From IMG/VR virus record IMGVR_UViG_3300028920_000023: 64,000 nucleotides of DNA; one strand, written 5' to 3'. The translations under genes and the position numbers were made by a program. This DNA comes from a virus (taxonomy: Duplodnaviria > Caudoviricetes). Positions within the stretch are counted from its first letter, which is position 1. Every line of letters begins with the position of its first letter. The notes below the pieces were generated by a model. That model was not told where the DNA came from. It did no database searches and saw only the letters and a list, made by a program, of their open reading frames with translations. Below are positions 1 to 64,000 of this stretch, piece after piece.

Positions 1-3000
1 AGATTCGCTCTCATAATCACCAAACGGATTTTCCGCATCTGGCTCCAGTGCGAACATATTTTGTACAGCTTCTGTTAGATCTTCAAATTGTTCTATTTGT
101 TTATCTACAGTAAGACTATCTTTTAGCTTTTTAGCTTCATCGCTAGCTCTAGTCATTTGATCTGCTACGAGCCTGGAATCATCTAACAAGTCCTTCATAG
201 TTATATCTTTTTGGGTCTTCTGCCGCTCCTTTAGGATATGATCCATGTTCTTTTCGAAAATTAGTTTCTCTTTGCTGGCCGTAATACCTACTTGTTCTAT
301 TCTCTTCTGCTCTTGTATCTTCTTCTTTTCTTTTTCACGAATAGCTATCATTTTCTCGTGTTCTGCTGTTATATCCGCCGTTATTTTCTTTATTCCTTCT
401 TGATCCTTATACAACTCAGTTATCGGTTTGTGTGTACGCAAGGCCTCCTTGCGGATACCCAGTATAATCGCTTGAGCAAGATTACCTTGCTTAATAGCTT
501 CCTGATATTGCTTATCAAGAACATTAACATCGCCTATTACTGCCTTATTCGCTTTAGCTTGAGCCACCACCAGAGAATTCAGTTTATTTTCTAATTCCAT
601 GATCTCCTTAGTCTTTTTGATCGTAACTCCGGTATCATCTCCAAATAGATATCCAATCCCCTTCGATATCGCAGACGGGTCTAACATTATTGCATCAATG
701 GCATCACTATATGCCTGCATCTCAGCTTTATCCATCTGCTCAATTCTTAATTTTGTTAATTTAGTCCTCAATTGTTTTATTTCTTCCTCATGTATCCCTT
801 GCATAATTTTCTTTTGTTCTAATAATTTATCACGACGTCTATCTAATGCCTTATTCCCTTCCTCGATAGAGGCTTTACCTTCCTTGAATGCCTTGTGAGT
901 ATCATAGACCCCCTTAGCCAATATATAAATTTCGGCGGCTATAGCTGCCCAGAATCCAAACTGAAGAACACGCAACCCGCTCATGCCTTTAAGCATATTA
1001 AACAATCCAGACACCTTATCACCAATAATTGAGAACCCTCTTCCTATAAAGCCACCACCTTTCCCAGTTACGCCTGCAAACATCTGTCTAAAGAAGTTAG
1101 CAACATAACCAGCCGCACCTTTCATCTTACTTACTAAACCACCAAGCATTTTACCTACAAAAGGAAATGCCTCTAATGCAGCCTTACCCACACCTAAGAT
1201 CCCACGTGTTACGCCGCCCAACAACGACCCCACTGAACCTAATAATCCGGAGAAGGCAGTTATCGTAATACCCCACGATGCCAAAGTCTTGACCCATGGG
1301 GTATCTAGGAAACCAATACTAGATTCAGCAATTGACTTAAGATAACTATGAGTAGTTTCCAAACTGTTCTTAATATCATCTACCGTAGTCTTTAGGTCCC
1401 TAATCAGTGTGTTTGTTTTATCTAGAGTCGCATTCATCTCCTTCATAGGATCTGCTGACTCTTCTGCGACCTTGTCGAAATCCTCCTGCCCACTTGCCAA
1501 TAATCTAACAGCTTTCATGATATCCATCCAATGTGCACCTTGCATACCTATCCGAGTACCCACATCTTGGATTTTGGCTATTTTACTTCTGCCACCCTCC
1601 ATATCATCAAGAATCTCAAGCCACTGCGTGGCCTGTTCAGCCAATCTCTTCTGCATAGCCGCCGGATCGTCCATAAGATTAAAAGCATCCTGGCCTATAA
1701 AGGCCACTGATTGCAAGGGATCAAGCATTCTCTTAACAACAGAAACAGCATCAGAAGTATTCATACCCAATTTTTTAGCACCACCAGCAGCACGCATAAG
1801 CGCCTTACTGTATCTCTCTGCAAACACCCCACCACGATCACCCATAACCACAGCAGATTCACCAATATTACTAAGTATTTGGTCAAGATCAGAACCAGTA
1901 AGCCCAATTTCTTTCGAAGCCCTGTTCATCCATAAGAGCTGCTTGGTAGCTGCTTTTGTATTACCCGTAACAGAAGTCAAATTCAACGCCATTCTGGCCA
2001 TGACTTCATTACTCGCACCCGCATTCCTCTTTAGAATCTGCATCTGCACGCCAATAGTATCAACAGCCTCCGCATTCTGGAAACCGACAGACCTCATAGC
2101 GACTATAGACTGTTCCAATTCCTCGGCCATAACATCATACTGACCCGCTAAATCCAAGGTTCTTTCGCTTAGAGCCTCCATCCCACCCATAGTCTGGTAA
2201 TGTAGCTCATGAAATAGTTCTTCTCTTTTTGCTGCCCTATCAACAGCAACAGAGTAAATACCAGCTGCACTGGCCATTTTAGTTAATTCGCCAAGACCTA
2301 CCGTATCCAGAGTCTTGCGTAAACCCTGGCCAATAGAACCTATAGTGTCCTTGATAGACGACCATACTTTGCCCATTGCCCTTAGACCGCCAATATAATT
2401 CTTAGCTTGACGAATATCTAGTACTTTCTTCTGAGCTTCCGCTCTGTCCTCCACGGAATCAGATAGGGCCTCTGATATTTTGTTTCTCTGTTCCTGTATT
2501 TCAAGAATCTCTTCATAAAGATCACGTTCTTTCTCAGACATCTTAATAATATCAGATTTCGTCTTAATACGATTATCCAGAGTCTTACCAATTTGTTTTT
2601 CGTACCTCTTCCTAAGATCATAATGCCTATATGCCAGTTTAGCTTCCTGGGTCAACAACTTACTCTTCTCGGAAGAGAATTGCCTAATTAATACCATCTC
2701 CTCCTCGGCCATACCTATGCCTTTTTTACTGCGTTTCTCCATAAGATCCATAAGATAAGGAATCGCAGTATCGGACAGGTACTTATATTGCTCTACTGCA
2801 TAATCTAGATCCTCTCCCCGGAGATATCTTATCTGAGCTACGGAACGCATAGCTGAGCTAAGGCGATCCAGCATCGCCTCTGGTAATCCGAGTTGTTTAT
2901 TCAGCCCTTCGACATTCTGTGTCGCCCCAGAAGTTTCTTTGGCAAAATTCCTAACTGACTGGGATATATCAGTCTGGGATATAGTCTTTGATGTTTTCCC

Positions 3001-3198
3001 AAATGATTCGGATATCTTCGTAAAGTTACTTGCGATATTTCCACCCATTTTATCCAGCATATTACTGGTGTTTTTAGCCAAATTCTGCACACGTGCCTCT
3101 AGGCTCTCGATCTTAGTCAGAGCAGAATCTAGAACCTGGTCCACGTTGCTCTGCAGAACAAGGTCAATACTGAGAGCATAGGAAGTGATGTCGGCCAT
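1..3198 (-). CDS. Tape measure-like tail protein, partial (3' end beyond window, >1066 aa)
   Basis: Translated by hand from ATG at 3198 (MADITSYALSIDLVLQSNVDQVLDS...), in frame to position 1 with no stop seen. Long alpha-helical/coiled-coil composition, a Gly/Ala-rich hydrophobic stretch (LLGSVGSLLGGVTRGILGVGKAALEAF), and position near a baseplate-like gene. Absent from the ORF track because no stop lies inside the window. Confidence 0.7.
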   Translation of the reverse strand, partial: MADITSYALSIDLVLQSNVDQVLDSALTKIESLEARVQNLAKNTSNMLDKMGGNIASNFTKISESFGKTSKTISQTDISQSVRNFAKETSGATQNVEGLNKQLGLPEAMLDRLSSAMRSVAQIRYLRGEDLDYAVEQYKYLSDTAIPYLMDLMEKRSKKGIGMAEEEMVLIRQFSSEKSKLLTQEAKLAYRHYDLRKRYEKQIGKTLDNRIKTKSDIIKMSEKERDLYEEILEIQEQRNKISEALSDSVEDRAEAQKKVLDIRQAKNYIGGLRAMGKVWSSIKDTIGSIGQGLRKTLDTVGLGELTKMASAAGIYSVAVDRAAKREELFHELHYQTMGGMEALSERTLDLAGQYDVMAEELEQSIVAMRSVGFQNAEAVDTIGVQMQILKRNAGASNEVMARMALNLTSVTGNTKAATKQLLWMNRASKEIGLTGSDLDQILSNIGESAVVMGDRGGVFAERYSKALMRAAGGAKKLGMNTSDAVSVVKRMLDPLQSVAFIGQDAFNLMDDPAAMQKRLAEQATQWLEILDDMEGGRSKIAKIQDVGTRIGMQGAHWMDIMKAVRLLASGQEDFDKVAEESADPMKEMNATLDKTNTLIRDLKTTVDDIKNSLETTHSYLKSIAESSIGFLDTPWVKTLASWGITITAFSGLLGSVGSLLGGVTRGILGVGKAALEAFPFVGKMLGGLVSKMKGAAGYVANFFRQMFAGVTGKGGGFIGRGFSIIGDKVSGLFNMLKGMSGLRVLQFGFWAAIAAEIYILAKGVYDTHKAFKEGKASIEEGNKALDRRRDKLLEQKKIMQGIHEEEIKQLRTKLTKLRIEQMDKAEMQAYSDAIDAIMLDPSAISKGIGYLFGDDTGVTIKKTKEIMELENKLNSLVVAQAKANKAVIGDVNVLDKQYQEAIKQGNLAQAIILGIRKEALRTHKPITELYKDQEGIKKITADITAEHEKMIAIREKEKKKIQEQKRIEQVGITASKEKLIFEKNMDHILKERQKTQKDITMKDLLDDSRLVADQMTRASDEAKKLKDSLTVDKQIEQFEDLTEAVQNMFALEPDAENPFGDYESES

Positions 3199-3293
3199 GG
3201 ATACCCCTACGATAATTACTCTTAATATGTTTGGTTTACTATCTACTTTACAAATTATCCTAGCACGATACAACAAGACAAAGGAGGAACATC

Positions 3294-6606: not shown

Positions 6607-9333
6607 CTAAGAACACTTAGAACTACCACAATCTTGACAAGTCCTACAAGTGCCCTCAAACTTCACATTACTACTACCACAATCAGTACACTTAAACGAA
6701 CCCTTAGCTTCCTTAGCATCAATATACTCAGTCAAAGCCCTCGCAATAGCCTTAGCAAACGACGTAACCGTCTCCTGAGACTTCAAAATCTGATCAACCA
6801 CAAACTCAATAGGAACACCATGCCTCAAAGAAGTAGAAATCAGCCTAGTAATAAGAGAAGCAGCCTCATCCTCATACCTATTCAATTGTCTTACAACCAT
6901 GGCACCACTCTCAAATTCATAAGTACCCTTCGCTTCGCCCTTATTCTTATGCTTAATTATATGACCCTTCTGCCTATCTGCAACACCAGCCTGAGCATGA
7001 TCTAAAGCAAAAACCTCGAAAACTCTACCCTTCAAAAACCCAATAAACACCGTATATATCTTACCATTCGGCTTAATCAAACGAACAACCGCATCCAACT
7101 TCCTAGGCCTCTTAGGAGACTTATGGCGCTTAATTTCAGATTCAGATTCGGATTCCGTAACCAAAACACCCTCTCTACTACCATCACGATAGACCGTAAT
7201 ACCCTTACAACCAGCCCTCCATGCCTCCTGATAATAATAGGAAATAACATCAGGCTTGCAATCCCTAGGAAGATTAACAGTATTACTAATGCTCTGATCG
7301 ATATACCTGTTCGTCACGCTCTGTAATCTGATCCTATGCTTCGGATCTACATCATGTGCCGAAATAAAATAATCAGGCAAATCCTCAGTATTATGAATCT
7401 CGCAATATTTCCTAGCAGCTGGATGAAATACGGTATGATGTTCTACCTTCTTTGACGTCCCCAGATTGGTCTTTCTCACATGCTTCATTTGGAATACTGG
7501 CTCTATCCCGGATGAGCATTGGGATATAAGAGAAAGAGAACCCGTAGGTGCTATGGCATGGATGCTTATGTTTCTGAGACCCTCTTTCTCTATTCTCCGT
7601 GTCAATCCCTCTGGGAGAGATTGCATGAATTCAGACTTCATATGGGTCTTGAAATCATAAACGGGAAAAGCACCTTTCTCAACTGCTAAATCACATGACG
7701 CCTCATAACTGTCATGGGCAAAACGGCTCATTACCTCTTCTGTCAATTCTATTGCAGACTCGTCATCAAAACGCATGCCCATCATCAGGAACAGATCAGC
7801 TAGGCCCATGATGCCCAGACCTAGGCGACGTCCATTGTCATTGGCCCATTGTTGGAATTCTTGTGGGGCTTTTTCTAGCGTTATAATATTATCTAGGAAA
7901 CGAACAGCGAGTTTTACATCTGATCCGAATTTATCATAATCGAATTCAGCTTCACTTGAAAATGGATCCTTTACGTATTTGCTCAGATTCATTGAACCTA
8001 AATTGCAGGAATCACCATGGGATAACAACGTTTCACCACAATTACCAATAATTACACCATTAGCAACAAAAGAATTTGTTTTTGGTTCTGTAAGGCAGAA
8101 TGTCTCATCTATTTTAAGATATGAGATAGATATTATTTTGGATTTAAATTTATTGTTATCTTCATAAGACCATAATTCGTCTCCTTTATTTAATTGTAAC
8201 AATTCAATTCTGCTACCATCAGTTTTTATGAATTTATGATTAGAGGTAGCATCTATATAAGAACCATTGTCCAATAATACTCTGAAGATCTTTTCTGATT
8301 TAGAAGTCCTATAAACTCTTGTTGCCTTCCCAGGACCATTAATAGTCATAATATCCAATACCAGACCTTGATCCCTGCTAATATACTCCTGATATTCGCC
8401 TTCTGCCCATAATTGTCTGGCTGTCTTATAACCAGAGTCTGTAAGAATCCTTGTATCACCAGTAATGCAAGGATTTGTAGTAACACACCCAAAACCACCA
8501 TAATGATGCGCCGGCACCGTCCTCTTAACAGTATCCCAAAACAACATACCAGGCTCACCACGCTTCCACGCACGATGAATTATCTCATTCCAAACCTTCC
8601 TAGCAGGGACCGTATCAAACACCTGGCCATTCCACTTCAAATCATACTCTCCGTCATCCTCAACAGCCCTCATAAACTCATCAGTAATCTTAACCGAAAC
8701 ATTCGCATACCGAACTAAATCAAGATCATCACCGCCCTTGATCTTAATGAAATCCATAATATCTGGATGATCAACATCAATCGAAATAAGCAAAGCACCT
8801 ATCCTACCATTCTGACCAATCATACCAGTCACAGTACTGAAAAATTGCATAAAAGAAACAGAACCTGATGACGTCCTAGCGGCATTGTGTACAGGCAAAC
8901 CTTTGGGTCTAAGCCTCGAAATATCGATACCACAACCGCCTCCGGCCTTGTAGGTCTCAGCCATCTTATATGCTGTATCGAATATACCTTTAATGGAATC
9001 TTCCTGAATGTCTATGACGTAGCAATTTTTTAGGGTTATGTTGGCATATGGGTTTCCTAGGCCGTATAAGATTCTTCCACCTGGTACAAATTTGAAATCT
9101 TCTAATAAGTCTCTGAATTTTAATTCAAATTCTTTTTTCAGCTGTTTTATTTCGGCTTGTGATATTGCTTTGGCTAATCTATCCCATAGGTGTTCTGGTT
9201 TATGTTCTGTATATAATTTGGTTTCTGGGTCTTGTAGGAAGTATTTGTCCACTAATATTTTGGCTGCTAGACGGTCTTTTGTTATTGTTTCGCATGTTTT
9301 ATATGCTTCTTCGATGGTGATACCTTCTGGCAT
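6607..9333 (-). CDS. nrdJ: Ribonucleoside reductase, class II (adenosylcobalamin-dependent), intein-containing, with C-terminal TSCPD-like/Zn-ribbon extension
   Basis: FVPGGRIL, CYV, GGGCG, NP-(intein)-CGE, RRLGLGIMGLAD, IAPTGSLS, SSGIEP, KGITVYRDGSR; C-terminal CxxC...CxxC; no beta-subunit gene in the window. Confidence 0.88.
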   Translation of the reverse strand: MPEGITIEEAYKTCETITKDRLAAKILVDKYFLQDPETKLYTEHKPEHLWDRLAKAISQAEIKQLKKEFELKFRDLLEDFKFVPGGRILYGLGNPYANITLKNCYVIDIQEDSIKGIFDTAYKMAETYKAGGGCGIDISRLRPKGLPVHNAARTSSGSVSFMQFFSTVTGMIGQNGRIGALLISIDVDHPDIMDFIKIKGGDDLDLVRYANVSVKITDEFMRAVEDDGEYDLKWNGQVFDTVPARKVWNEIIHRAWKRGEPGMLFWDTVKRTVPAHHYGGFGCVTTNPCITGDTRILTDSGYKTARQLWAEGEYQEYISRDQGLVLDIMTINGPGKATRVYRTSKSEKIFRVLLDNGSYIDATSNHKFIKTDGSRIELLQLNKGDELWSYEDNNKFKSKIISISYLKIDETFCLTEPKTNSFVANGVIIGNCGETLLSHGDSCNLGSMNLSKYVKDPFSSEAEFDYDKFGSDVKLAVRFLDNIITLEKAPQEFQQWANDNGRRLGLGIMGLADLFLMMGMRFDDESAIELTEEVMSRFAHDSYEASCDLAVEKGAFPVYDFKTHMKSEFMQSLPEGLTRRIEKEGLRNISIHAIAPTGSLSLISQCSSGIEPVFQMKHVRKTNLGTSKKVEHHTVFHPAARKYCEIHNTEDLPDYFISAHDVDPKHRIRLQSVTNRYIDQSISNTVNLPRDCKPDVISYYYQEAWRAGCKGITVYRDGSREGVLVTESESESEIKRHKSPKRPRKLDAVVRLIKPNGKIYTVFIGFLKGRVFEVFALDHAQAGVADRQKGHIIKHKNKGEAKGTYEFESGAMVVRQLNRYEDEAASLITRLISTSLRHGVPIEFVVDQILKSQETVTSFAKAIARALTEYIDAKEAKGSFKCTDCGSSNVKFEGTCRTCQDCGSSKCS
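8041..8469 (-). mobile_element. Mini-intein (143 aa, no homing endonuclease) in the RNR active-site NPCGE motif
   Basis: Starts CITGDTRILT after NP; block B ATSNHKF; ends SFVANGVIIGN followed by C+1 (CGE); removal restores NPCGE. Confidence 0.9.
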
Positions 9334-10040: not shown

Positions 10041-10301
10041 ATGGAAACCAAATCGGAAGCCTCCCAAAAGGCAGATTTGAATAAAAAAGAACAGCTATCA
10101 GACTGGGCAGACAAAGTAATAGAAGAATTTAACGAAGTGGCGAAAAAACACAATATAACAAATATGGCGGTAGTATTCACGCATCCAGAAACTCAAACAC
10201 CAGCTGTATCCCAATTAGGACACCCTTACGACGTAGCTAAAATAATGGCAGCAGCAACCAGAGTCCTAAAAAACGAAATAAACAAACAACTAGAGACCTG
10301 A
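10041..10301 (+). CDS. Hypothetical protein
   Basis: 86 aa ORF with GGGG RBS-like element. Confidence 0.65.
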   Translation: METKSEASQKADLNKKEQLSDWADKVIEEFNEVAKKHNITNMAVVFTHPETQTPAVSQLGHPYDVAKIMAAATRVLKNEINKQLET

Positions 10302-12838: not shown

Positions 12839-12853
12839 CCCAATCTCCCTGGC

Positions 12854-13258: not shown

Positions 13259-13302
13259 GAAAAATCTCCTCAGATTAGCGCGCTATTTTTAATTTTGACT
13301 CT

Positions 13303-19031: not shown

Positions 19032-19046
19032 TATATTCTCCTAGAA

Positions 19047-19071
19047 AAACGCCCGCTTTGCGCGGGCGTTT
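19047..19071 (-). terminator. Rho-independent terminator
   Basis: 10 bp perfect inverted repeat AAACGCCCGC/GCGGGCGTTT, followed by a T-run on the minus strand downstream of the 19107 gene. Confidence 0.75.
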
Positions 19072-19652: not shown

Positions 19653-19663
19653 CGTCTTCTCCT

Positions 19664-49636: not shown

Positions 49637-49671
49637 CAGATAAATAATCCTAAACACCTAAGGAGTCCAAC

Positions 49672-52574: not shown

Positions 52575-54157
52575 TTCCAATCATTAAGCATATTACGAAT
52601 CTCATTACATACAACATCAACCTCAGGCAAATAATCCATAATATCACCATTCACCCAGTCAATATCCTGGCCATGCACCATAGTAGGACGAGAATCGATA
52701 TCGGCACAAACCAACCGCTTATATAAAGACGCAGACTTATAAGTCTGATGACCATACCTATACGGAATAACATGATCAGGAGCCTTGCAAGTCGGAATCA
52801 ATGCAATATAATTATCAAAAGCACCAGCAATATGAACCGGAGCAGAATCATTAGTCAACAACACCTTAGCCTTGCTAACTAGAGCAAAAATACCACCCAA
52901 AGACAATAAATTGATTGTATTAATCACATCGGAAGGAATATTATCAAGCTTCACAACACCCTGCTCATCAGAAATATGTTTACCAATTAAAATAACCCGA
53001 CCGACCTTAGACAACTCGCGAACAACCTCTTCCCAATATTCCTTAGGAAAAGTCTTAGAAGGCCAACCCCTACCAGCATGAACCAAAACACAATTATCAA
53101 AATCCAAATCAGAACCAACTACCTTCTCAAGCTCCTCATAATCTTCCTTAAGAACCTTCAATTTAATATGCTTACAATCATTCGGAATAGTCCCCCTCAG
53201 ACTCATGACACTGCTGTAGTCCGTCGTATGCATCTGATTAGGAGAAACATAACGCCAAGACGGACAACCATGCTTGGCCATCGTATGAATCTCGTAATAT
53301 GAGGTATCATCTTTGGGCTTGAAGGTGCCCATATCGTACACCGGAACAGGAAGATGCATAAACGCCCTGGGATACCAAGTAGTCACGTGTATTCTAGCAT
53401 CTGGATAAGCTTTTTCAATAATATAACGGATTACGGGTTCAGCGCAAATCTGATCACCTAAACCTCCATGAACCTGGACATTAATATTAAAAGGATAATC
53501 TGATAAATTGCTTCTCCAAGAAGCCAAATCTTTCTCGACAAGGTTAAAAACAGTTCCAATATTTGGACAACCAGCATAATGAACAATATAACTTGCTAAC
53601 CTATGCTTACCGACGAAATCTAGAACCGTCATCCTATTAAAATTATACTCAAGTTCAAATATTTCAACTTTAGATTTCTTGAACATTAAATTTAGAAATG
53701 ATTGCTCATAAAAATTGCTAATTTCATTCATAGGCTTTACAAACAAATGTTTATGACACCTAGAAATGACAAGAACGCCAGTATTGTAATAATCATTATC
53801 CCAATTTAGTTGTACATTATATTGCTGTTTAATAGCTTGGATAGCACCAGAACGGTCAGCGAATCTTCCTTCATTAAAGGCACCCAATTTATCTTCTGGA
53901 ACGATATCAAACAAATTCGGACAATCTTCTCTAACAATTAAATCTGTATCCATATAGATAATTCTATGGTAGACGTTTAGATAATAATATATCTGGAATT
54001 TTTCGAAATGTGGTGTAGTTTGTGAGATCTGTTGTTGATCAATAACAATAAAATCGGCACCAATTCTCTTGGCATAGGCTTCCAGAGTAGGATGCGTCAG
54101 TTTTGCTAAAGACTGATGATTCTGACCAATTGCGATCGTTATTATTGCTGTTTTCAT
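52571..54157 (-). CDS. GT8-like plus GT9-like glycosyltransferase fusion (paralogue of 49672)
   Basis: FEKFQIY, IIYMDTD, YNTGV, IVHYAG; GGLGDQICAEP, GWPSKTFP, TNDSAPVHIAGAF. Confidence 0.85.
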   Translation of the reverse strand: MKTAIITIAIGQNHQSLAKLTHPTLEAYAKRIGADFIVIDQQQISQTTPHFEKFQIYYYLNVYHRIIYMDTDLIVREDCPNLFDIVPEDKLGAFNEGRFADRSGAIQAIKQQYNVQLNWDNDYYNTGVLVISRCHKHLFVKPMNEISNFYEQSFLNLMFKKSKVEIFELEYNFNRMTVLDFVGKHRLASYIVHYAGCPNIGTVFNLVEKDLASWRSNLSDYPFNINVQVHGGLGDQICAEPVIRYIIEKAYPDARIHVTTWYPRAFMHLPVPVYDMGTFKPKDDTSYYEIHTMAKHGCPSWRYVSPNQMHTTDYSSVMSLRGTIPNDCKHIKLKVLKEDYEELEKVVGSDLDFDNCVLVHAGRGWPSKTFPKEYWEEVVRELSKVGRVILIGKHISDEQGVVKLDNIPSDVINTINLLSLGGIFALVSKAKVLLTNDSAPVHIAGAFDNYIALIPTCKAPDHVIPYRYGHQTYKSASLYKRLVCADIDSRPTMVHGQDIDWVNGDIMDYLPEVDVVCNEIRNMLNDWN

Positions 54158-55002
54158 AGATTAGGACCAATAGGACCGGATTTAAGATGCTTTTCCCAGA
54201 AACGAGCGTTACCAGTTATGTTCTGCCAAATCTCGTTTTTAAAAACAGTGTCATCAAAACAATTTTGCCATGATGAGGGTTGTGGTTTTACCTTGGGTCT
54301 TATCTTGTGTAAGTTCTTAAAACCATGCACATCATCGTCTTCATGTGTTATTTGTTCTACATTATCAAAATCATGGTCATAAGGTTCTTCTCCTAGAAAT
54401 TCGTAAATGCATTCCATCGTGTTTTCTGGACTATTTGTCAATTTTTCATAATCAACAAAATACATATGATTAAGCCAGCCACGAAGAATAGAATCATTAA
54501 TAGCATTAAATGCCCTTCCGATAGGCTCACCATCGGAAATGAAAACTCTAATTCTATTTAATGCTATTCTCATCTTAAGAGGATCATCATCCTGCGGAAT
54601 ACGACCCAAAGCTGAGGTCATTCTGAATAATTTCTCAAAGGAGGTAATAACGTCCCTAAGGTCTCTAACCGTGACCAGACATTTAAAATCACCTATTAGG
54701 GCTTGAGCTAATTCAAAGAATGAGGGCCAGCCTCTGTTCTTGTCGAAACAGACTGGTTTATCGGTGTGTTGGAAAGATGCCTGTAGAACGGCATTTAGGA
54801 CGTTTTCTTTGACTTTTTCACAAAGGTCGTTGTCCCATGCTTTGAACATGGGGTTGGTATTCCAGGTGTTTTTCATCTGGACAAGTAAGTCTAACGTACC
54901 CGAGGATGGTGTTACGTAGAACTTTGGATTTTGTCCCAGGATATTCATAAGCAGGGTTGACCCACTACGGGGCAACCCTGATACTAGGTGTATTGTTTTC
55001 AT
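54154..55002 (-). CDS. PAPS-dependent sulfotransferase
   Basis: SGLPRSGSTLL 5'-PSB loop, DKNR, VRDLRDVITSF 3'-PB, VDYEKL. Confidence 0.85.
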   Translation of the reverse strand: MKTIHLVSGLPRSGSTLLMNILGQNPKFYVTPSSGTLDLLVQMKNTWNTNPMFKAWDNDLCEKVKENVLNAVLQASFQHTDKPVCFDKNRGWPSFFELAQALIGDFKCLVTVRDLRDVITSFEKLFRMTSALGRIPQDDDPLKMRIALNRIRVFISDGEPIGRAFNAINDSILRGWLNHMYFVDYEKLTNSPENTMECIYEFLGEEPYDHDFDNVEQITHEDDDVHGFKNLHKIRPKVKPQPSSWQNCFDDTVFKNEIWQNITGNARFWEKHLKSGPIGPNL

Positions 55003-55006
55003 GTTA

Positions 55007-56650
55007 TTATGTACTTGCGATATAGTCCAAACCAATTCTGTTAGTGGGCAAGAAACTCGGGTCTAAATTAATTCCGGCTATATTACTGTTCCAGTACAAT
55101 TTATCGTTCTCCTGAATATCCCCAATAGCTCTTACTGATGGCGAGAACTGATTAAAAGACATTGCCACGGACGTTGGACTTGATCTGTTTTGTATTGTAT
55201 TATCACCTAATCGACCAGGATATCCGTAGGCATTATTAGTATTAGAATTATTTCCCCAATTCCAGACAGAACCATCTTCCTTAACCAAACAGGAAGCAGT
55301 GCAATCTGTATTGAAGAAAGAATGATTGCCAACCACACTAACAGGACTTGTTCTAACCAATATAGTATTATCCCCTACGCTATCATAAACGCCGTATACG
55401 GGATGCGCAACATCATATTTATTCTCACCCCAAGCCCAAACCTCACCATTGGCCTTCAACCCAGATATCGTGTTAGTTAAACTACTCATTACCCTAATAA
55501 ACGAATGATTACCAGCTACACTAACGGGGCTAGATTCTTTCGCATACCCATTACCAAGACCTGCCTGACCAGCAAGACCACCAGCCCAAGTCCATGCGCT
55601 CCCATCAGCCTTAAGACCAATCATTGCTCTACCACCAGCGATCTGAACAAAAGCATGATCACCATGCACACTGGTAGGGCTAGACCTATTAATAGGAGTT
55701 TCATCACCAACTATATAATATCCATTATCCTGTCTGCCCCACCCCCAAGCAGAACCATCGGCCTTCAAAGCAAGAAAACCATCTATAAAACCATGCGTGA
55801 CCTGAATAAACGAATGATTACCTATAACACTAGTAGGACTAGATTTATTTGTAATTGTACCATCACATACTACACCATAATAATTAAAGCCCCAAGCCCA
55901 AACAGTACCATCAGCCTTCAAACCAATATTAGTCTGATAACCAGCAACCACAGATATAAAAGAATGATTACCAACAACACTTACAGGACTAGATTTATTA
56001 TCAGGAGTATTATCGCCCAATTGACCACTATCATTAGTACCCCAACTCCAAGCAGTACCATCAGCCTTCAACGCAACAGTATGATATTTACCCATACCAC
56101 CAAAAGATACAAAAGAATGGTTACCAACAACACTCACAGGACTAGAAACATTATCAGCAGCATTATTACCCAACTGCCCCACATTATTAAGGCCACTCAT
56201 CCAAATACCACCAGTATAACCATCTAATACAGTCAAATTATTAGCAGACAAAGCAACCTTAGAATTGGTAAAATAATTAAAAGAATCAGGACTAAAGAAA
56301 CAATCTTTAGTCTTAACACCATCACCAAGAGTCCTCTGAATACCATTCAAAGTAACATTCACATAATCAGCCGGAGTAGAACCAATCTGCACACCAGTAT
56401 TCTGCTGATCACCAGAAATAAAAGACGTAACCTTAGTAGTCTCACTAACCAACCCACCACGACCAATCGGACCAGTAGGACCAGTAGGACCAGTCGGACC
56501 AGTAGGACCAGCAGAACCAGCAGGACCAGTCGGACCAGCCACAGCAGGACCAGTAGGGCCAGTAGGGCCGGTAGGGCCAGTCGGGCCAGTAGGACCAATT
56601 ACACCTTGTGGTCCAAGAAAAACACCATCAGTAATCGATGAACCAGCCAT
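55007..56650 (-). CDS. Collagen-like plus RCC1-repeat protein 1
   Basis: (GPT)n; [21 protein letters not shown] and [12 protein letters not shown] repeats. Confidence 0.88.
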
Positions 56651-56658
56651 GAGTCACC

Positions 56659-58233
56659 TCAGACAAAGTAATTGAAATCAACCCTATCAGTCGTAGACAA
56701 GCCAACACCGGAAATATTACTATTATAATACAAATAATCATTAGCGCTTATATCAGCATGGGCTCTAGGCGGTGCAGTAAAAGGGAAACTCTGCACAGCA
56801 GACGCCGGAGTAGATCTATCATTAACATCATTAGTGCCAAGTCTACCATTCGAATTATTGCCCCAACCCCATGGAATACCATCACTATCTAAACCACCCA
56901 TCATAGCAATATCAACAAAGGTATGAAAACCGGATACCAAAACAGGGCTGGTCCTAGTTAATGTAGTACCATCACCAGCAGAATCATCATTATAGGGCTT
57001 ACCCCAAGCCCAAAGCTGACCACCAAACTTCAAACCAGTCATAATACCACGAGGACCACTAGCTATCTTAATAAACGAATGTCCACCAACCACACTAGTG
57101 GGGCTACTTCTAGGATTCGAGGTACCATCACCAACAGTATCATTCAAACCACCCCAAGCCCAAACAGAACCATCAGACTTCAAACCAGCCGAAATAACAC
57201 CGCCAGCAATTTGTGTAAAGACATGATCACCAACCACACTAGTGGGACTACTGCGAGGGTTCGTAGTACCATCACCCAAAAACGGACGTGTAGCATCCTG
57301 AAAACCCCAAGCCCACACAGTGCCACCGGATTTCAGGCCAGCAAATCCGGGGAAATCACTATAACCAAGGCCAACAATCTCTGAAAAAGCATGGTTCCCA
57401 ACAACCTGCCCTGGAGCATCTCCTGGACCGCCACCATTAAAATAAGTATTATTACCTAATTGCCCATACTTATTATTACCCCAAGAATAAGTATAACTTC
57501 CTTCTAATGCAACAATAGAATCACCAGCAGCAGCTACTCGATCAAAAGTGTGATCTCCACTTACGCTGGTAGGGCTCGACCTAGGAAAGGAAGGATCAAA
57601 TCCCCACCACCACGCAGCCCCTAAAGTATCTATAGCCACAGTATGCCTATAACCAACTGCAATATGAGAAAATTGAAAATCACCAATCACACTAACGGGA
57701 CTAAGTGACCCAATAAAATCAGTATAATCATTACCCAATTGACCATAATTATTCTTGCCAGTAGTCCAGACATAACCATAATTATTACCACCGGTCAGGA
57801 AAGCGCTATGATACTGGCCAAAGACAGCCTTACTCCAATAATAATTATTGCCAGAAGCAGGAGCAACAGAACTAAAGAAACAATCCGCATCTGCAGAAGC
57901 ATCACCAACCTCTTGCCGGACACCATTCAAAAAGACAGAAACAGCCTTGTGCGGATTATTTGAGATCTGTAAATTATTATTACTGTGAATATTAGGATAA
58001 GTAGTATTGGCACCAGGAGACAGATCCTTGTCATCCTTCGTAAACAAATAACCAGAGCCCGTAGGACCAGTCAAACCAGGGCCAGTAGGCCCTGTCGTTT
58101 GAGGACCAGTTGGGCCAGTCGGGCCGGTAGCGCCTACGGGGCCAGTAGGACCAGTAGGACCACCCAAACCAGGACCAGTCGGACCAGTCGGGCCAGCAAA
58201 ACTATCACTATTTAATGAAGAGCCCATGGTCAA
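56659..58233 (-). CDS. Collagen-like plus RCC1-repeat protein 2
   Basis: (GPT)n; [11 protein letters not shown] and RSSPTSVVG repeats. Confidence 0.88.
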
Positions 58234-59864
58234 TCCTCAACGTAGTTTAAATCAACACGATCAGAAGGAGAAAGATCAAAACCCGCGATGTTGCTATTCC
58301 AATACAGATAATCATCTTTGCTAATATTATAAACAGACCTAGGTACAACAACAAAAGGATAGGAAGAATTCACAACTGTTATCGGACTATTAATACCCTC
58401 GTTAATATAACCATTTCCAATATTGCCATACTTATTATCACCCCATGCCCAAATCTGTCCATCATCCTTGACACCAACAGTAGAAGTTGGAACATTGGTG
58501 AAGCTATGATCACCAATTACACTAGTTGGACTACTTCTAGAATTGGAAGTATTATCACCTACGGAACCATAAGCCCACGAATAAATAAATTGCCCACCCC
58601 ACGACCATAACGATCCGTCAGCTTTCTTTCCACCAACAGTCTTGTTCCCACCGCCAAATACACTGACAAAACTATGTTCTCCGGCAACGGAAGTGGGACT
58701 AGAACGGCTATTTGTAGTATTATCACCTACACCAACACCGTAAGTGCCACTCCCACCCCAGCCCCAAACCGTTCCATCAGCCTTTAAGCCTAGAGAAATA
58801 AGAGTAGAGGCAATATCTATAAAACTATGATTTCCGATCACACTAACAGGGCTAGACCTATGATATTGAAAATCACTATAACCTTCACCCAAATTACCAT
58901 AATAATTAGCACCCCAACACCACGCAGTACCATCGGCTTTCAAAGCAACAAAATGATTAACACCATACTCAGCCCCACCAACAACCTTAATAAAACTATG
59001 GTTACCAATTACACTAGTAGGACTGCTCCTGGAATAAATAAAACCATTATACCCATCACCAATAATACCAGACTCATTAATACCCCAACACCAAACTGTC
59101 CCATCAGACCTCAGACCAGCCGCATTTCGATTTGTCCGAGTAACCTGAACAAAATTATGACCACCAACAACAGAAGTAGGACTAGAACGATTACTAGTAT
59201 CACCAACACCTAACTGACCATACGAATTAGAACCCCAAGCCCAAGCAGAACCATCAATCTTAATAGCCACCACACTACCATTATAAATACTACCACTAAC
59301 AAACCTATGACCACCAACAACACTAGTAGGACTAGTCCTATTGGTAGCATAACCATCACCAATAGCACCAGAATTACCTCGACCCATAACCCAAGCCGTG
59401 CCACCAACACCATTACTACTACCACCAGCAATAATCAACGTATTATATAAAGGCTTAAAAACCAAAGTCTCATATCTATAACCACTAAAATTATCAGAAG
59501 AAAAGAAAACATCCTTAGTCCTAACACCATCACCCACAACACGCTGAAAACCATTAATCAACGTACTAACATAACCACGAGGAGATCCACTAACCTGCAA
59601 CCCCGTATTCTGAGCATAACCACTAATAGTAGAAGAAACAGACAAATCCTTATCAATACTTACAAAACCACTACCAGGACCAGTAGGACCAGTAACTTCT
59701 GCACCCGTAGGACCAGTAGGACCAACAGCCGCCGTAGGACCCAAAGGACCAGTAACACCAGAACCAGTCGGGCCAGTAGGACCAGCAACAACCTCATCCG
59801 AAGGACCAGTAGGGCCAACCGGGCCAGGAGAACCAACAATATCAATAAAAATAGAAGAACCCAT
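58230..59864 (-). CDS. Collagen-like plus RCC1-repeat protein 3
   Basis: (GPT)n; [13 protein letters not shown] and [13 protein letters not shown] repeats. Confidence 0.88.
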
Positions 59865-59865
59865 A

Positions 59866-61419
59866 TTAGTCCTTAACGTAATCTAGATCAACACGATCAG
59901 AAGGAGAAAGATCAAAACCAGCAATATTACTATTCCAATACAAATAATCATTAACCGCTATATTGTCAATAAACTTAGGGGTAGGTTGAAAAGCAGATGG
60001 AGTTAGAATAACGCTAGTTGGGCTAGATCTACCTGATGTATCTCCTAACCCCAATTGCCCAGTACCATTAGAACCCCAAATCCAAGCAGTACCATCAGAC
60101 TTTAAACCAACATCCTCAGTCAGAACATTAGCAAAAGAATGATTACCAAATACACTGACAGGACTGGACTTTTCCCCAATCGAATTATCTCCGGCATTGC
60201 CAGCATAAACTCTACCCCAAGACCACATGGTACCATCGGACTTAAGACCTCTAGACATCCCATGTCTACTATTTATAATCCTAATAAAACTATGATTACC
60301 GAGAACACTAGTCGGACTAGAACGGCTCACTAGATTAACGGCAAAAGCACCCCAAGCCCAAACCGTTCCATCACTTTTTAACCCATTACTAGTAGTACCA
60401 CCAGCGATCTGTATAAAACTATGATTCCCAACAACACTGACAGGACTTCTTTTATCAATAACAGTACCATCACCAAGCTGCCCACTACCATTTTGACCCC
60501 AAGCCCAGACAGTACCATCAGGCTTCAGAGCCATTACACCTTCATCACAAGCCGTAATCTGCGAAAAATAATGATCACCGATAACAGAAGTAGGACTAGA
60601 GCGAGAAGTAAGAGTCCCATCACCAACATCAGTACCCCAACACCATAAAGTCCCATCAGCCCTTAAAGCAGCCATAACCTGTCTAGAACCGACAACATCG
60701 ACAAAATTATGACCACCAACAACACTAGTGGGACTAGAACGACTAACATTATAATTATCACCAATAGTCCCAGGACCGAAAAAAGACCCGCCCCAACACC
60801 AAACACTACCATCAGCCTTAATAGCGGCCATAGTATAACGACCACCAGCAGTAATCTTTCTAAACTTATGATTACCAGCAACCGCTACAAAAAGAGACCT
60901 GTTAGACCTATTAGTAGCCTCACCATTAGCACCCCAATAACCATAACCACAACAATAAGCCTTACCTGCATTAGCACCAGAACCACCAACAATTAAACCA
61001 GAATTTTCAAAACCAATACTAATACTCATATCATATCTATAACCACTGAAATTATCAGAAGAAAAGAAAGTATTCTCAGATCTAACACCATCACCAACAA
61101 CCTGCTGAAAACCATTAATCAACGTACTAACATAACCACGAGGAGACTCACTAACCTGCAACCCCGTATTCTGAGCATAACCGCTAGTAGCAGAAGGAGA
61201 CAAACCCTTATCAACACCAACAAAACCACTACCAGGACCAGTAGGACCAGCCACCTGTGCACCCGTAGGACCAGTCGGACCAACAGCAGCCGTAGGACCC
61301 AAAGGACCAGTAACACCAGAACCAGTCGAACCAGCAGGCCCAGTAATACCAGGACCAGTCGGACCAGTCGGACCGGTACTACCAACAATATAAATCGAAG
61401 TCAAAGACGAACCAGGCAT
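59866..61419 (-). CDS. Collagen-like plus RCC1-repeat protein 4
   Basis: (GPT)n; WAWGQNGSGQLGDG and RSSPTSV repeats; 5' about 300 nt nearly identical to paralogue 3. Confidence 0.88.
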   Translation of the reverse strand: MPGSSLTSIYIVGSTGPTGPTGPGITGPAGSTGSGVTGPLGPTAAVGPTGPTGAQVAGPTGPGSGFVGVDKGLSPSATSGYAQNTGLQVSESPRGYVSTLINGFQQVVGDGVRSENTFFSSDNFSGYRYDMSISIGFENSGLIVGGSGANAGKAYCCGYGYWGANGEATNRSNRSLFVAVAGNHKFRKITAGGRYTMAAIKADGSVWCWGGSFFGPGTIGDNYNVSRSSPTSVVGGHNFVDVVGSRQVMAALRADGTLWCWGTDVGDGTLTSRSSPTSVIGDHYFSQITACDEGVMALKPDGTVWAWGQNGSGQLGDGTVIDKRSPVSVVGNHSFIQIAGGTTSNGLKSDGTVWAWGAFAVNLVSRSSPTSVLGNHSFIRIINSRHGMSRGLKSDGTMWSWGRVYAGNAGDNSIGEKSSPVSVFGNHSFANVLTEDVGLKSDGTAWIWGSNGTGQLGLGDTSGRSSPTSVILTPSAFQPTPKFIDNIAVNDYLYWNSNIAGFDLSPSDRVDLDYVKD

Positions 61420-61445
61420 ATCAGACCCCTATTAAAAACCTACCT

Positions 61446-61453
61446 TATATTTG
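61446..61453 (-). promoter_or_regulatory. Putative promoter motif CAAATATA
   Basis: 26 nt upstream of the RCC1 operon start. Confidence 0.45.
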
Positions 61454-61544
61454 AAAATTCAAACCTAAAACAAAGAAAGAATAGGATCAACATCAAACAA
61501 CGACATTATAATCCCACAAGGTGCAGCAATAACAGGAAATAAAC

Positions 61545-62912
61545 ATGAAAATCATCACCTCAGACGGCACCACAAAATCAGGAATAGCAGGCCCCACAGG
61601 CCCCACAGGCCCAACCGGACCAGAAGGACCACTAAACCAAAACCCAACACTAGAAAGCCTCACCCTATTCAGTTCAGCACCGTCCCTACTCATACAAGAA
61701 GACAATACCTCACCCGGATGGGAATTAACAAGTGATAATGGCAACCTCCAAATAAATAATCTGACAGACTCAACAAACCCACAAACAATACTACAAGCCA
61801 ACACAGAATTATTAACAATAAACGCAGCAACAAGTTTGGACGGTGCAGTAACAATAAACGATTCTGGATCGAATGTAAACTTTAGAATAGCATCAGACGT
61901 ATCAACACACGCATTCTTCATACAAGGCAGTAACGGGAACATAGGAATAAACAATAGCACCCCCGCTAGCAATTCAGGATTTAGTAATGCACTAGAATTG
62001 ACACAAACGACCGATGGTTGGGATCTGATGTTTAACAACCCATCCGCAGGTACGAGCACCTCAATTGGAGCCATAACAGCAAATCGCGACTCTGATGTAT
62101 TAACGGCCTTACTGTTCAGTGCAGATGGCGCGACGGACTCTGGTGTAATGAGATTCTTTACGCAGCCGACTGGCGGTGCACTAACCGAGCGTATGCGCAT
62201 TGACTCTAACGGGAATGTAGGTATCGGGGGCACACCGGTTTCGGACTGGGACGGTCGTTATGCAGTGCAATTTGGTGACAAGGGTTCATTGTCTTCAACT
62301 AAATCTGGCAATCCAAATGTGTATCTTACGGCAAACTTAGCGTTTGATGATCCAAACTGGGAATATCTAAGTGGGTACATCGGCGGAATGTATCAAATAG
62401 ATAGGGGTTGGCACTATTGGTATACAACCACTGATGCCACGCAATCTGCGGGGGCGACAGCAACACTAGCCCAGCGAATGTCGCTAGATACAGGCGGACG
62501 GCTATACCTACCATCCCTGCTCCAAACAACATACTCGGGTTTGACCGTAGAAATTGATACGGCTAATGGCGGACTATACGTCGAAACAAGCACGAGAAAG
62601 ACAAAGACGAATATTCGGGATGTTGACGGTAAAGCGTGGAATGACATCTATTCTTTGCGTGTTAGGTGTTTTGATAGTCTGGATGGGAAGCATAACGGTA
62701 TGGTCGGCCTTGTGGCAGAGGAAGCCGCACAGATCAACCCTCGGTTTGTAGTGTTTGACGGCGAAGGCGCGCCACTAGGCATCGATAGGAAGAACATACT
62801 ATATGCGCTCGTGAAGTGTCAGCAGGACCATAGAGGGAAGTTGCAAACGGCAAAAGCTAAGGTGCAAGAACTCGAGTCCCGCATCGCAGCATTGGAGGCA
62901 GCGAATAACTAA
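61545..62912 (+). CDS. Tail fibre protein with collagen-like start and S74-like chaperone
   Basis: Shared N-module; MRIDSNGNVGIG; STRKTKTNI...GLVAEE...IDRKN...ELESRIAALEA. Confidence 0.85.
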   Translation: MKIITSDGTTKSGIAGPTGPTGPTGPEGPLNQNPTLESLTLFSSAPSLLIQEDNTSPGWELTSDNGNLQINNLTDSTNPQTILQANTELLTINAATSLDGAVTINDSGSNVNFRIASDVSTHAFFIQGSNGNIGINNSTPASNSGFSNALELTQTTDGWDLMFNNPSAGTSTSIGAITANRDSDVLTALLFSADGATDSGVMRFFTQPTGGALTERMRIDSNGNVGIGGTPVSDWDGRYAVQFGDKGSLSSTKSGNPNVYLTANLAFDDPNWEYLSGYIGGMYQIDRGWHYWYTTTDATQSAGATATLAQRMSLDTGGRLYLPSLLQTTYSGLTVEIDTANGGLYVETSTRKTKTNIRDVDGKAWNDIYSLRVRCFDSLDGKHNGMVGLVAEEAAQINPRFVVFDGEGAPLGIDRKNILYALVKCQQDHRGKLQTAKAKVQELESRIAALEAANN

Positions 62913-62984
62913 TGCTCGGTCACGGCACCATTGTTGATAAAAGCAGAGCTTGAAGCTCGTATTATAGCTTTAGAGGCGCAGTAA
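62913..62984 (+). pseudogene. In-frame remnant of an alternative tail-fibre chaperone C-terminus
   Basis: Immediately after the TAA the same frame reads CSVTAPLLIKAELEARIIALEAQ*, matching the LIKAxxEL...LEARIxALE ending of S74 chaperones. Confidence 0.6.
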
Positions 62985-63013
62985 TTTACAAAACACCTCT
63001 CGCCGTATATAAA
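62985..63013 (+). promoter_or_regulatory. Sigma70-like promoter
   Basis: TTTACA (62985-62990), 17 nt spacer, TATAAA (63008-63013). Confidence 0.55.
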
Positions 63014-63019
63014 AGCACA

Positions 63020-63665
63020 AGTCTTTAGAAAGGCAGCCACGCGACAATCCCCGCTGGTATAGGAGCGTGTGGAGACGCACATTGTGCGTTCGTTGGACTT
63101 TAACTAACGCAGCCTCGGGGGTCTTCAGCAGAGACGCTGTCGTAAAATCCCAGTAAGACGGAGGCCCGCCAGTAAATCTTAGATTCTATAGCTGGCACAA
63201 CTTAACGCATAACCATTATGGTGAGGACCAACCTGGCAACAGGAAGGTTTCCAGAAAGCAAGGACTTTCTGGGCGGATGAGGGCCTTTGCTGGGTCACAA
63301 CCACAAGACAAGATCTTGACCGGTTGCGATACAAAGCACCCGTTGAGGAGACAAGAGAACAACCGCCAACAAACCACGCTAATCCCGAGTGGTTAATAAC
63401 GGCTCTTGAGCCCTCTGCGCACCACCAAAACCAAACAGGAGGAAACACAAGCCTATCAGCAACAACAAAATACCGACATGCTGTCAAAACACAACAAAAC
63501 AACAGCTAACCGCGCAACAGCACAGCCAACAAACACAAAACAACAGCAAACCAAAAAACAGCAAACGGCACGCTACCACGAAAGTAGGCTTGTAAGAATC
63601 TGTTTGGGAAAAACACCAAAATAGCCAAAGAAAAAGAAACATATCACGTCAGAATTTTTCTTGGT
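63020..63665 (+). ncRNA. Candidate large structured non-coding RNA (family unassigned)
   Basis: Multiple hairpins with GNRA/CUUG loops and G-U pairs, a 10 bp long-range helix (63447-63456 with 63584-63593), no convincing ORF, upstream promoter. Confidence 0.5.
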
Positions 63666-63773
63666 TATTGTTTTATGGGGGGCGGATGCGGATGCGAGGG
63701 AGAATCTCTATCCCAAATACAATTGCACAATGTGCACACTAGACAAACACCCACCAAAAGATAAACAAACAAC

Positions 63774-64000
63774 ATGAACGAACATAACACAAACCAACCA
63801 ATACACCTCAGCGGCGGCTCCAAACATTGGGCCGCCAACAGCCCAATCGCCAGCAAATACCTAGAAAACAAAGACAATAGCAAAAACATAAAACAAATGA
63901 ACAAATATGCAAACATCCTAGACAGCATACTGCCCAGAAAAAAGCCACATAACGCAGAACTCTACGCAAAAGAAACACAACTCAACGAACGAGAAAAACA
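63774..64000 (+). CDS. Hypothetical protein, partial (runs off window)
   Basis: MNEHNTNQPIHLSGGSKHWAANSPIASKYL..., open to 64000; A/C-ending codons as in other + genes. Confidence 0.55.
   Translation, partial: MNEHNTNQPIHLSGGSKHWAANSPIASKYLENKDNSKNIKQMNKYANILDSILPRKKPHNAELYAKETQLNEREK

Follow-up and report, generated by a model that had tools for sequence, protein, structure and literature searches.

Kilobase patches of strong strand skew at silent sites in a T4-like phage genome from marine sediment

Genes and features of the locus

The window, a 64,000-nucleotide stretch of Caudoviricetes DNA, belongs to a giant T4-like phage with its own RecA, gp32, RusA, DnaB, primase-like protein and split Pol III alpha. 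The replication genes comprise a DnaB-like helicase, a Toprim primase-like protein and a gp32 SSB, and a family-A polymerase fragment is also present. A tblastn search with the C-terminal part of Pol III alpha returned distant relatives only, the best with ~27% identity.

Contigs on record from JGI, ENA and Logan, all from the same marine-sediment material, are 100% identical to the window, and contigs from three marine-sediment runs match it identically; no RNA run is listed among those that contain it. The window and these public contigs together give 87.7 kb, over which the patches were mapped. A sequencing or assembly artefact is ruled out, since codon positions are respected, the ORFs are intact and the three sources agree at 100%. 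From a wetland run came only short pieces, 95–99% identical and too sparse for polarising changes. No match emerged from exact-pattern scans of viral and metagenome collections, nor from Megablast, or tblastn of one glycosyltransferase, against phage records.

The A+C fraction at third codon positions, read on the + strand (A+C3), divides the DNA into strongly skewed patches of the prevailing polarity (P), near-balanced patches (N) and reversed, mirror-image patches (R). The features are listed below.

1..64000, no strand: whole window; + strand A+C-rich at silent sites in both gene orientations, mean A+C3 0.75
1..1591, - strand: N patch, tape-measure-like gene, extending left of the window to -894
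7402..8440, - strand: N patch, RNR mini-intein (aa 289-431, nt 8041-8469) in its greater part, plus ~0.6 kb of the extein downstream
9010..9319, - strand: R patch, first ~108 codons of nrdJ (N-terminal all-alpha domain), A+C3 0.14
10196..15124, - strand: P patches, a double glycosyltransferase and two ORFs (10290-12838) that relatives lack, A+C3 0.85-0.86
18816..22132, - strand: longest N patch, small ORFs, 5'-3' exonuclease and part of gp32, A+C3 0.57
31320..37530, - strand: P patches, dnaE C-part, RNase H-like ORF and most of dnaE N-part, A+C3 0.81-0.93
37719..37984, - strand: R patch, codons 5-94 of dnaE N-part, A+C3 0.18
38382..43033, - strand: P patches, 838-aa ORF, actin-like Volactin and 182-aa ORF, A+C3 0.92-0.97
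43929..44208, - strand: R patch, tail-fibre gene aa 77-170, A+C3 0.12, edges sharp to a few codons
48128..48390, + strand: tail-fibre N-terminal module, a natural control, with further copies in the + gene at 61545 and, to the left of the window, in a - gene
49579..53291, no strand: strongest P patch, A+C3 0.91, over the + glycosyltransferase genes 49672-51294 and 51291-52574 and into the convergent - gene 52571-54157
53294..55400, - strand: N patch, 5' part of a 528-aa gene, 293-aa phrog_27463 gene and start of the first RCC1 gene
55403..61964, - strand: P patches, four RCC1/beta-propeller paralogues, A+C3 0.81-0.88
61967..63419, no strand: N patch, most of the + tail-fibre-like gene 61545-62912

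Strand skew and gene orientation

The + strand of the window consists of 33.6% A, 25.8% C, 25.3% T and 15.3% G, with a GC skew of -0.25 and an AT skew of +0.14. A or C stands on the + strand at 75.2% of 20,011 third codon positions (z = 71), and within patches 87–99% of silent positions are A or C on this strand. The initial annotation had described this excess from two hand counts of A+C, 48 of 60 bases at 50161-50220 in a + gene and 45 of 60 at 40321-40380 in a - gene, both of which are exact on recount. Intergenic DNA (2.7 kb in total and weakly informative) has an A+C content of 0.565.

Third positions of the 14 + genes contain A.449, C.291, G.110 and T.150, while those of the 48 - genes, in + strand letters, contain A.495, C.258, G.094 and T.153. 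At fourfold sites A+C amounts to.761 in + genes, and G+T on the coding strand to.756 in - genes. A+C3 is above 0.5 in all 14 + genes and in 46 of the 48 - genes; the per-gene medians are.708 and.756, correspondingly, with no effect of orientation (Mann-Whitney p=0.57). This split of third positions by gene strand bears out the claim that the skew is tied to the DNA strand and not to gene direction: its sign does not follow the coding strand of each gene, as transcription coupling would have it. Codon choice is mirrored between the strands, as had been proposed, with + genes favouring A/C-ending and - genes G/T-ending codons. NNC makes up 57–73% of pyrimidine-ending pairs in + genes vs 11–25% in - genes, and NNA makes up 75–89% of purine-ending pairs in + genes vs 33–40% in - genes. 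The G+T-rich strand carries 81% of the coding DNA.

The patch mosaic

The initial annotation had placed the skew over most of the window. The skew itself is real, but it is a mosaic with sign-reversed patches instead of a single uniform field. Over the 87.7 kb, P patches cover 57% of codons (A+C3 ~0.87), N patches 39% (~0.55) and R patches 4% (~0.13), in 49, 54 and 10 segments, correspondingly. P outnumbers R polarity by about 13:1. A+C3 of P segments ranges from 0.78 to 0.97, and there is no positional gradient along 85 kb. Fourfold sites of strong patches have, on the affected strand, T.62-.69, G.18-.27, A.055-.062 and C.047-.069, and the composition of R patches is the reverse complement of that of P patches. 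The stretches that had been called balanced (the tape-measure gene, 18.8-22.1 kb, and the intein with its flank) are near-balanced on measurement, and N stretches of this DNA retain a weak A+C excess of the same sign as P patches.

The strongest P patch crosses the convergent +/- gene junction unchanged, and at the fourfold sites of its 540-aa glycosyltransferase gene the GC skew is -0.94 and the AT skew +1.00. The P patches at 38382..43033 are separated by short balanced gaps at gene junctions. Some R patches sit within intact genes, namely nrdJ, dnaE and a tail fibre. The left edge of the nrdJ patch rises within ~225 nt, and on its right the skew decays over ~1.1 kb into the upstream ORF. 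To the right of the window, a 2-kb R patch at 68.4-70.5 kb spans two conserved + genes and stops at a gene end, with a Mom-family, homing-endonuclease-like gene directly to its right. The flip near 68.4 kb was considered as a replication origin and rejected, because the reversal lasts for only 2 kb and is one of several. Patch shapes show no consistent origin-like sawtooth: nrdJ and dnaE fit one roughly, in contrast to gp5, the tail fibre and the 68-kb patch. Scans for consensus promoters and terminators that might anchor the patches gave no more hits than shuffled sequence.

Mutation and selection

The tail-fibre N-terminal module, present on both strands, shows the effect at identical residues, where A/C-ending codons make up 75–90% in the + copies and 34–35% in the - copy. 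The amino-acid composition is also shifted. Gly, Val, Phe, Trp and Cys together account for 13.6% of residues in + genes vs 24.1% in - genes (p=6e-54), as mutation pressure predicts. Fourfold skew is the same at conserved and variable residues (.889 vs.864, p=0.32), which rules out translational selection, including selection for accuracy. Selection for unstructured mRNA was also rejected, as most genes give G+U-rich transcripts, which fold at -33.3 kcal/mol per 150 nt vs -31.6 for balanced ones; only the A+C-rich strand is unstructured (-16.8 kcal/mol per 150 nt). The neighbouring-base context left by APOBEC- or DddA-type deaminases is absent.

Because third positions are saturated, the mutation spectrum was drawn from the equilibrium composition and from sparse non-synonymous changes. 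Among the latter, polarised against two syntenic relatives, the ratio of C>T plus A>G on the - strand to the complementary changes is about twofold higher in P than in N, a difference that stems mainly from fewer complementary changes in P. Transitions relative to the 95–99% identical wetland relative are weakly asymmetric (35 vs 21). The skew is a real mutational footprint, much stronger and patchier than ordinary replication bias; its size, as had been suspected, lies far beyond the usual leading/lagging difference.

Relatives

In 16 stretches from 14 related contigs, islands aside, the strand component lies between -0.08 and +0.04, compared with +0.25 here. The genome-wide skew of syntenic relatives is mild, and rare extreme islands occur in three of the four relative contigs that were read whole or nearly whole. 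The island of contig G001 (733-5450) has A+C3 of.85-.94 over a + helicase gene and three - genes and stops at a divergent intergenic region. Contig G006 has an island at 179.5-183.5 kb, and in contig G003 one 833-aa gene has G or T at 97% of third positions. G003, a complete relative, shows a mild background that is independent of orientation (A+C3 ~.38-.47 on both strands) and whose sign two of its three islands share.

Identity ratios to two syntenic relatives are 1.10, 1.11 and 1.13, N and R segments being no nearer or farther than P. The lineage-specific ORFs at 10290-12838 are strongly P, while the core virion genes gp5 and p181 are N or R. A general rule that balanced DNA is recently imported was therefore rejected.

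Comparison with known systems

The closest described phenomenon is that of GRINS (2021, PMC8256042), which are defined by duplication within PKS clusters (>500 bp at >80% identity). In both cases G+T vs A+C skew is local, third codon positions are the most skewed, signs change abruptly inside intact genes, and amino acids shift between Gly/Val/Cys/Trp and Pro/Thr/His/Gln. In 150-nt windows of the phage DNA, the mean absolute GC and TA skews are 0.280 and 0.226, above the GRINS threshold of 0.15, and in 42% of these windows both skews exceed 0.15 with the same sign. In GRINS the two skews are correlated and share a sign; over the window, which is mostly of one polarity, their Pearson correlation is only r = 0.23, and at third positions both are strong and of the same sign. 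As in GRINS, the skew is maximal at third positions and is accompanied by the matching amino-acid shift. The phage differs in that its patches take up more than half of the DNA, with one polarity dominant by ~13:1, and in its lack of repeats: no duplicate of >500 bp and >80% identity was found within the 87.7 kb, the best self-matches being 800 bp at 74% and 200 bp at 87.5%. The GRINS authors noted that replication could not account for both skew signs on one strand, and mentioned single-copy skewed regions and phage genes (PMC8256042).

In bacteria such as Lawsonia and Borrelia, strand-specific codon usage is linked to replication and independent of transcription and the G+T-rich strand carries most genes (PMC2671203). 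Codon and amino-acid use there likewise differ by strand and not by gene orientation, but polarity switches only at the origin and terminus, whereas in the phage it switches many times, in some cases inside genes. The bacterial effect is small (in Lawsonia, for instance, RSCU of GAU 1.73 vs 1.60; PMC2671203) next to the phage NNC shares of 11–25% vs 57–73%. Vertebrate mtDNA has A+C-rich and G+T-rich strands at silent sites, attributed to deamination of C and A in the exposed strand (PMC3269012), with a single polarity and a gradient tied to single-stranded time, in contrast to the gradient-free, mirror-image patchwork of the phage. Huge phages can have a unidirectional-type GC skew (Al-Shayeb et al. 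2020, PMC7162821) that is similar in its constant sign over long distances and of which the G003 background looks like a mild case on both gene orientations; this skew was described as a whole-sequence GC pattern, and neither two-letter saturation of third positions nor patchwork is reported there.

Possible origins of the skew

The letters agree with what the initial annotation had read in them, as the G+T-rich strand is depleted of C and A, which fits the C>T plus A>G deamination signature of the mitochondrial H strand. The replication mode that it had drawn from this, with one strand long single-stranded genome-wide as in mitochondrial strand displacement, is highly improbable, even though the skew at fourfold sites is comparable in size to that of vertebrate mtDNA. 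There is no positional gradient, 10 reversed and 54 near-balanced segments interrupt 87.7 kb, and the predicted helicase, primase-like protein and gp32 SSB would form a toolkit for coupled forks. Such a mode is also insufficient on its own because relatives are mildly skewed and carry rare extreme islands of the same kind. What is required is a process that acts locally; replication direction at most sets the prevailing polarity. Transcription could act through deamination of the non-template strand in long read-through units of the locally dominant direction, in which genes of the minority orientation lie antisense. Usually the locally dominant coding strand is the G+T-rich one, as for 81% of coding DNA here and in the islands of G001 and G006; the first of these islands stops at the divergent intergenic region, and the 68.4-70.5 kb patch spans its two + genes and stops with them. 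Nevertheless, this origin is improbable: of all genes, the two + glycosyltransferase genes have the highest skew, and have it in the "wrong" sense; R patches occur within - genes; P/N borders cut through genes belonging to a single co-oriented array; in G003 the 833-aa gene has an A+C-rich coding strand; and promoter and terminator hits do not exceed those in shuffles.

Recombination offers another source of patchiness. A lineage-specific, one-directional replication asymmetry would make resident DNA P, with N segments recently imported from unskewed relatives and R segments from oppositely replicated regions or relatives. Polarity is constant over 85 kb, unidirectional-type skew occurs in about 30% of huge phages (PMC7162821), and RecA and RusA are phage-encoded; the balanced patch of nrdJ corresponds to the mini-intein and a 0.6-kb flank, as in homing with co-conversion, tail fibres and the tape measure, which are typically exchanged, are N, and the Mom-family gene abuts the 68.4-70.5 kb R patch. 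This explanation is nonetheless rather unlikely, given the equal distance of N, R and P segments from two syntenic relatives, the strong skew of ORFs that these relatives lack against N or R core genes (gp5, p181), and the islands in otherwise mildly skewed relatives. It also requires homologous exchange between mirror-coded alleles at ~70% DNA identity or less, and a search for a paralogue that could have donated the tail-fibre R patch was negative; gene conversion there from opposite-strand paralogues was rejected, as these are only ~40% identical in amino acids. A cause other than single-strand damage, namely strand-biased repair or conversion, a mispair-prone polymerase, an enzymatic deaminase or DNA-level selection, has little probability. 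Its polymerase variant would involve keto/enol or amino/imino mispairs in repair synthesis; the GRINS authors invoked such tautomer-based errors together with gene conversion, and the phage encodes a family-A polymerase fragment as well as a rich set of recombination functions. Against the other variants, deaminase-type context is lacking, folding energies do not support selection for unstructured mRNA, and the skew of the whole window would lower palindromic 4-mers by only ~8%, as calculated from its base composition.

The explanation favoured here, tentatively and at somewhat less than an even chance, is a deamination-type process (C>T plus A>G) acting on one strand in kilobase tracts, whose usual polarity tracks a genome-wide direction. 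Such an amino-to-keto change would strip one strand of nearly all silent C and A, while selection at the protein level would keep it mostly at silent sites. The affected strand would be the - strand in 57% of codons and the + strand, with mirrored letters, in 4%, with a mild bias in the remaining 39%. One strand would have to be exposed as single-stranded DNA time and again, in fixed kilobase tracts, while the DNA replicates or recombines. The usual polarity may be set, most simply, by fork direction. A genome-wide direction, as judged from 87.7 kb, fits the same-signed excess in N stretches, the 81% of coding DNA on the G+T-rich strand, and complete relatives with mild background skew and most islands sharing its sign. 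By analogy, the chemistry resembles that of leading-strand or mitochondrial skew, with strength probably set locally, as in GRINS. The one-strand process gives no specific account of R patches in single-copy genes or of the sharp edges in the tail fibre.

Significance

A process that rewrites nearly every silent site of a 2–4 kb tract on one strand and shifts protein composition goes beyond textbook replication or transcription bias. The patch map might even be a fossil record of where, and on which strand, the phage DNA is regularly single-stranded, although this is unlikely; candidate sites would be fixed gaps, D-loops, R-loop origins, or single-strand gaps in virion DNA that persist for long in sediment. 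If so, silent-site keto/amino skew would provide a strand-resolved map of replication and recombination intermediates, and a sequence-only handle on the replication of uncultured giant phages. One undescribed process would then also underlie both the phage patches and the GRINS of Streptomyces. Codon-based host prediction and phylogenies of such phages are expected to be distorted. A gene finder trained on the majority strand overlooks genuine genes; the recorded gene calls of the public contigs, for instance, lack the 540-aa glycosyltransferase.

The phage and its genes

The sequence comes from an uncultured giant T4-like myophage of marine sediment; it is present in identical form in a 183-kb ENA contig, and two of the window proteins are recorded on a contig of 354,787 bases. 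Through 100%-identical public contigs, the window was extended to 87,743 bases (-16,829 to 70,913 in window coordinates). Short contigs from a wetland metagenome run are 95-99% identical to parts of 30001-50000. Matches to Pfam or PHROGs identify a class II ribonucleotide reductase (RNR, nrdJ) with a mini-intein, gp32, a DnaB-like helicase, a Toprim primase-like protein, a bacterial-type RecA, RusA, a 5'-3' exonuclease, several glycosyltransferases and tail fibres. Genes and features with coordinates are:

8041-8469, - strand: RNR mini-intein of 143 residues, starting C-I-T-G and ending G-N, followed by C
10290-12838, - strand: two ORFs (295 and 553 aa) between a glycosyltransferase and a 228-aa gene
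23289-24422, - strand: family-A polymerase fragment, 377-aa ORF (Pfam/PHROGs)
33187-35736, - strand: Pol III alpha, remaining part
35729-36142, - strand: RNase H-like ORF (Pfam/PHROGs)
36510-38000, - strand: Pol III alpha, PHP/N-terminal part
41158-42471, - strand: actin-like protein (Pfam Volactin, E 3.5e-41)
55007-61419, - strand: four tandem RCC1/WD40-like beta-propeller paralogues, 40-54% identical to one another

Between the two Pol III alpha genes lie a 122-aa ORF and the RNase H-like ORF. The 377-aa ORF, which matches family-A DNA polymerases over their C-terminal part only, is situated beside the Pol III alpha replisome genes. Three of the four RCC1-type paralogues have a short N-terminal stretch in common with a tail-fibre protein, and the first also has tail-fibre N-terminal matches in PHROGs. 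The ORFs at 10290-12838 show no family match and are missing in syntenic relatives.

Strand skew at silent sites

The initial annotation described an A/C excess on the strand as given (the + strand), independent of gene orientation and dictating codon choice. Its two hand counts of A+C are exact on recount, and both statements are borne out. In + strand letters, third positions are A.449, C.291, G.110 and T.150 in the 14 + genes and A.495, C.258, G.094 and T.153 in the 48 - genes, with the same pattern at fourfold sites in both. The share of A or C at third positions (A+C3) exceeds 0.5 in 14/14 + genes and 46/48 - genes; the overall excess is large (z=71), with no difference between + and - genes (p=0.57), and across the 62 genes third positions do not follow the orientation of individual genes. 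Codon choice is mirrored between + and - genes in every codon family.

The + genes are genuine, several having family matches and two small ones appearing among the genes called on the public contigs. A natural control is provided by the tail-fibre N-terminal module, which is encoded on both strands: at identical residues, A/C-ending codons make up 75-90% in the + copies vs 34-35% in the - copy. Protein composition differs as well, with Val at 2.9% in + genes vs 7.9% in - genes and the keto-codon amino-acid group at 13.6% vs 24.1%. The G+T-rich strand carries 81% of coding DNA. A 540-aa GT8/GT9 glycosyltransferase ORF (49672-51294, + strand) is absent from the recorded gene calls, which have three short opposite-strand ORFs (152, 88 and 52 aa) in its place; perhaps a trained gene finder takes the codon dialect of the minority strand for non-coding sequence.

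A patchwork of three states

A three-state model fitted to the third codon positions of the 87.7 kb yields a strong state (49 segments, 57% of codons, A+C3 about 0.87), a near-balanced state (54 segments, 39%, about 0.55) and a reversed state (10 segments, 4%, about 0.13). At fourfold sites the reversed state (T.65-.68, G.20-.25) has the reverse-complement composition of the strong state (A.62-.69, C.18-.27), suggesting that one and the same process has acted on the opposite strand there. Of the following reversed patches, the first four fall within intact single-copy genes:

nrdJ, first 108 codons
dnaE N-part, codons 5-94
gp5-like gene, 5' part
tail fibre, residues 77-170
a 2-kb patch just right of the window, spanning two consecutive + genes and the end of the + gene before them

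A strong patch runs unchanged over the convergent gene junction at 52.57 kb.

Islands in related phages

In 16 stretches from 14 related contigs, some of them syntenic (RNR identity 53-61%), the strand component is -0.08 to +0.04, vs +0.25 in the window phage. One contig stood out in this first comparison, and four were read whole or nearly so. In G001 (IMGVR_UViG_3300033153_010864, 47.9 kb), an otherwise balanced contig holds a 4.8-kb island (L028 733-5450) with A+C3 of.85-.94, which spans a + helicase (PHROG 1e-97) and three - paralogues regardless of orientation and stops abruptly at a divergent intergenic region. G003 (IMGVR_UViG_3300013121_000020, 354 kb, 98% complete) shows a mild background that is independent of gene orientation (A+C3 about.38-.47 for both strands over 220 kb), an 833-aa gene that in + strand letters has G/T at 97% of third positions (L064 17247-19751) and, at 237.5-244.4 kb (L062 17556 to L063 4403), two adjacent extreme blocks of opposite polarity meeting near 240.5 kb. 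A further contig, G006, has one island, and none was seen in the 200 kb read of G005. The sign of most islands is that of their background. Since these islands stand in otherwise mild or balanced relatives, the extreme skew is local: rare in relatives and pervasive in the window phage.

Intein and homing-endonuclease-like genes

The intein site is empty in the RNR of one relative. In another the protein is longer and contains a LAGLIDADG domain, which presumably belongs to a larger intein. Several proteins of 455-578 aa have the Pfam 'Mom' domain (PF25680) at their C-terminus, and one of them has an HTH at its N-terminus as well; their genes include L006 10712-11065 (window-equivalent 70560 onward) and L009 4417-5874. 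One relative's gene has a faint DUF559 match on record, taken to be Vsr-like, and proteins with the same N-terminal part carry NUMOD3/TnsA domains. Judged by these domains, the Mom-family genes look like free-standing homing-endonuclease-like genes.

Origin of the patches

Several causes were tried and rejected. Selection for translational accuracy is not the cause: inside patches, the skew is as strong at conserved as at variable residues. Nor is selection for unstructured mRNA, since most genes have G+U-rich transcripts that fold no less well than balanced ones. A context-dependent deaminase would leave a motif; none was found, and neighbouring bases are without effect. The pattern is no artefact, as codon positions are respected and contigs recorded under three sources, all derived from one sediment material, are identical at every base. 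No origin-like shape was consistent across the patches examined, and promoter scans were empty.

A strand turning G+T-rich would be losing the amino bases C and A, the classic signature of single-strand deamination (PMC3269012). Third positions are saturated and show the end state only. At first and second positions, which are less saturated, the ratio of - strand C>T plus A>G to the complementary changes is ~2x higher in strong than in near-balanced segments, a difference lying mainly in fewer complementary changes in strong segments. The letters and this ratio together favour a one-strand, deamination-type process that would act in kilobase tracts, the usual polarity of which would follow a direction common to the whole genome, in the simplest case that of fork movement. 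A possible alternative is a purely global asymmetry plus imports of other-state DNA: the near-balanced nrdJ patch comprises most of the mini-intein (aa 289-431) with ~0.6 kb of downstream extein, and one Mom-family gene adjoins the 2-kb reversed patch. At the resolution available, phylogeny gives no sign of foreign origin for near-balanced or reversed segments.

Comparison with known systems

The initial annotation attributed the skew to deamination during mitochondrial-type asymmetric replication. This reading is borne out in part: the letters and strength do agree with mitochondrial asymmetry (PMC3269012), but the layout of the latter does not match the patchwork. Strand-specific codon use in bacteria (PMC2671203) is of the same kind but far weaker, and its polarity switches at origin and terminus only. 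GRINS, the locally skewed duplicated regions of PKS clusters, have the same compositional signature, and their mechanism is likewise unexplained (PMC8256042); the repeats that define them, however, were not found within the 87.7 kb read. In huge phages, GC skew of the unidirectional type is known (PMC7162821).
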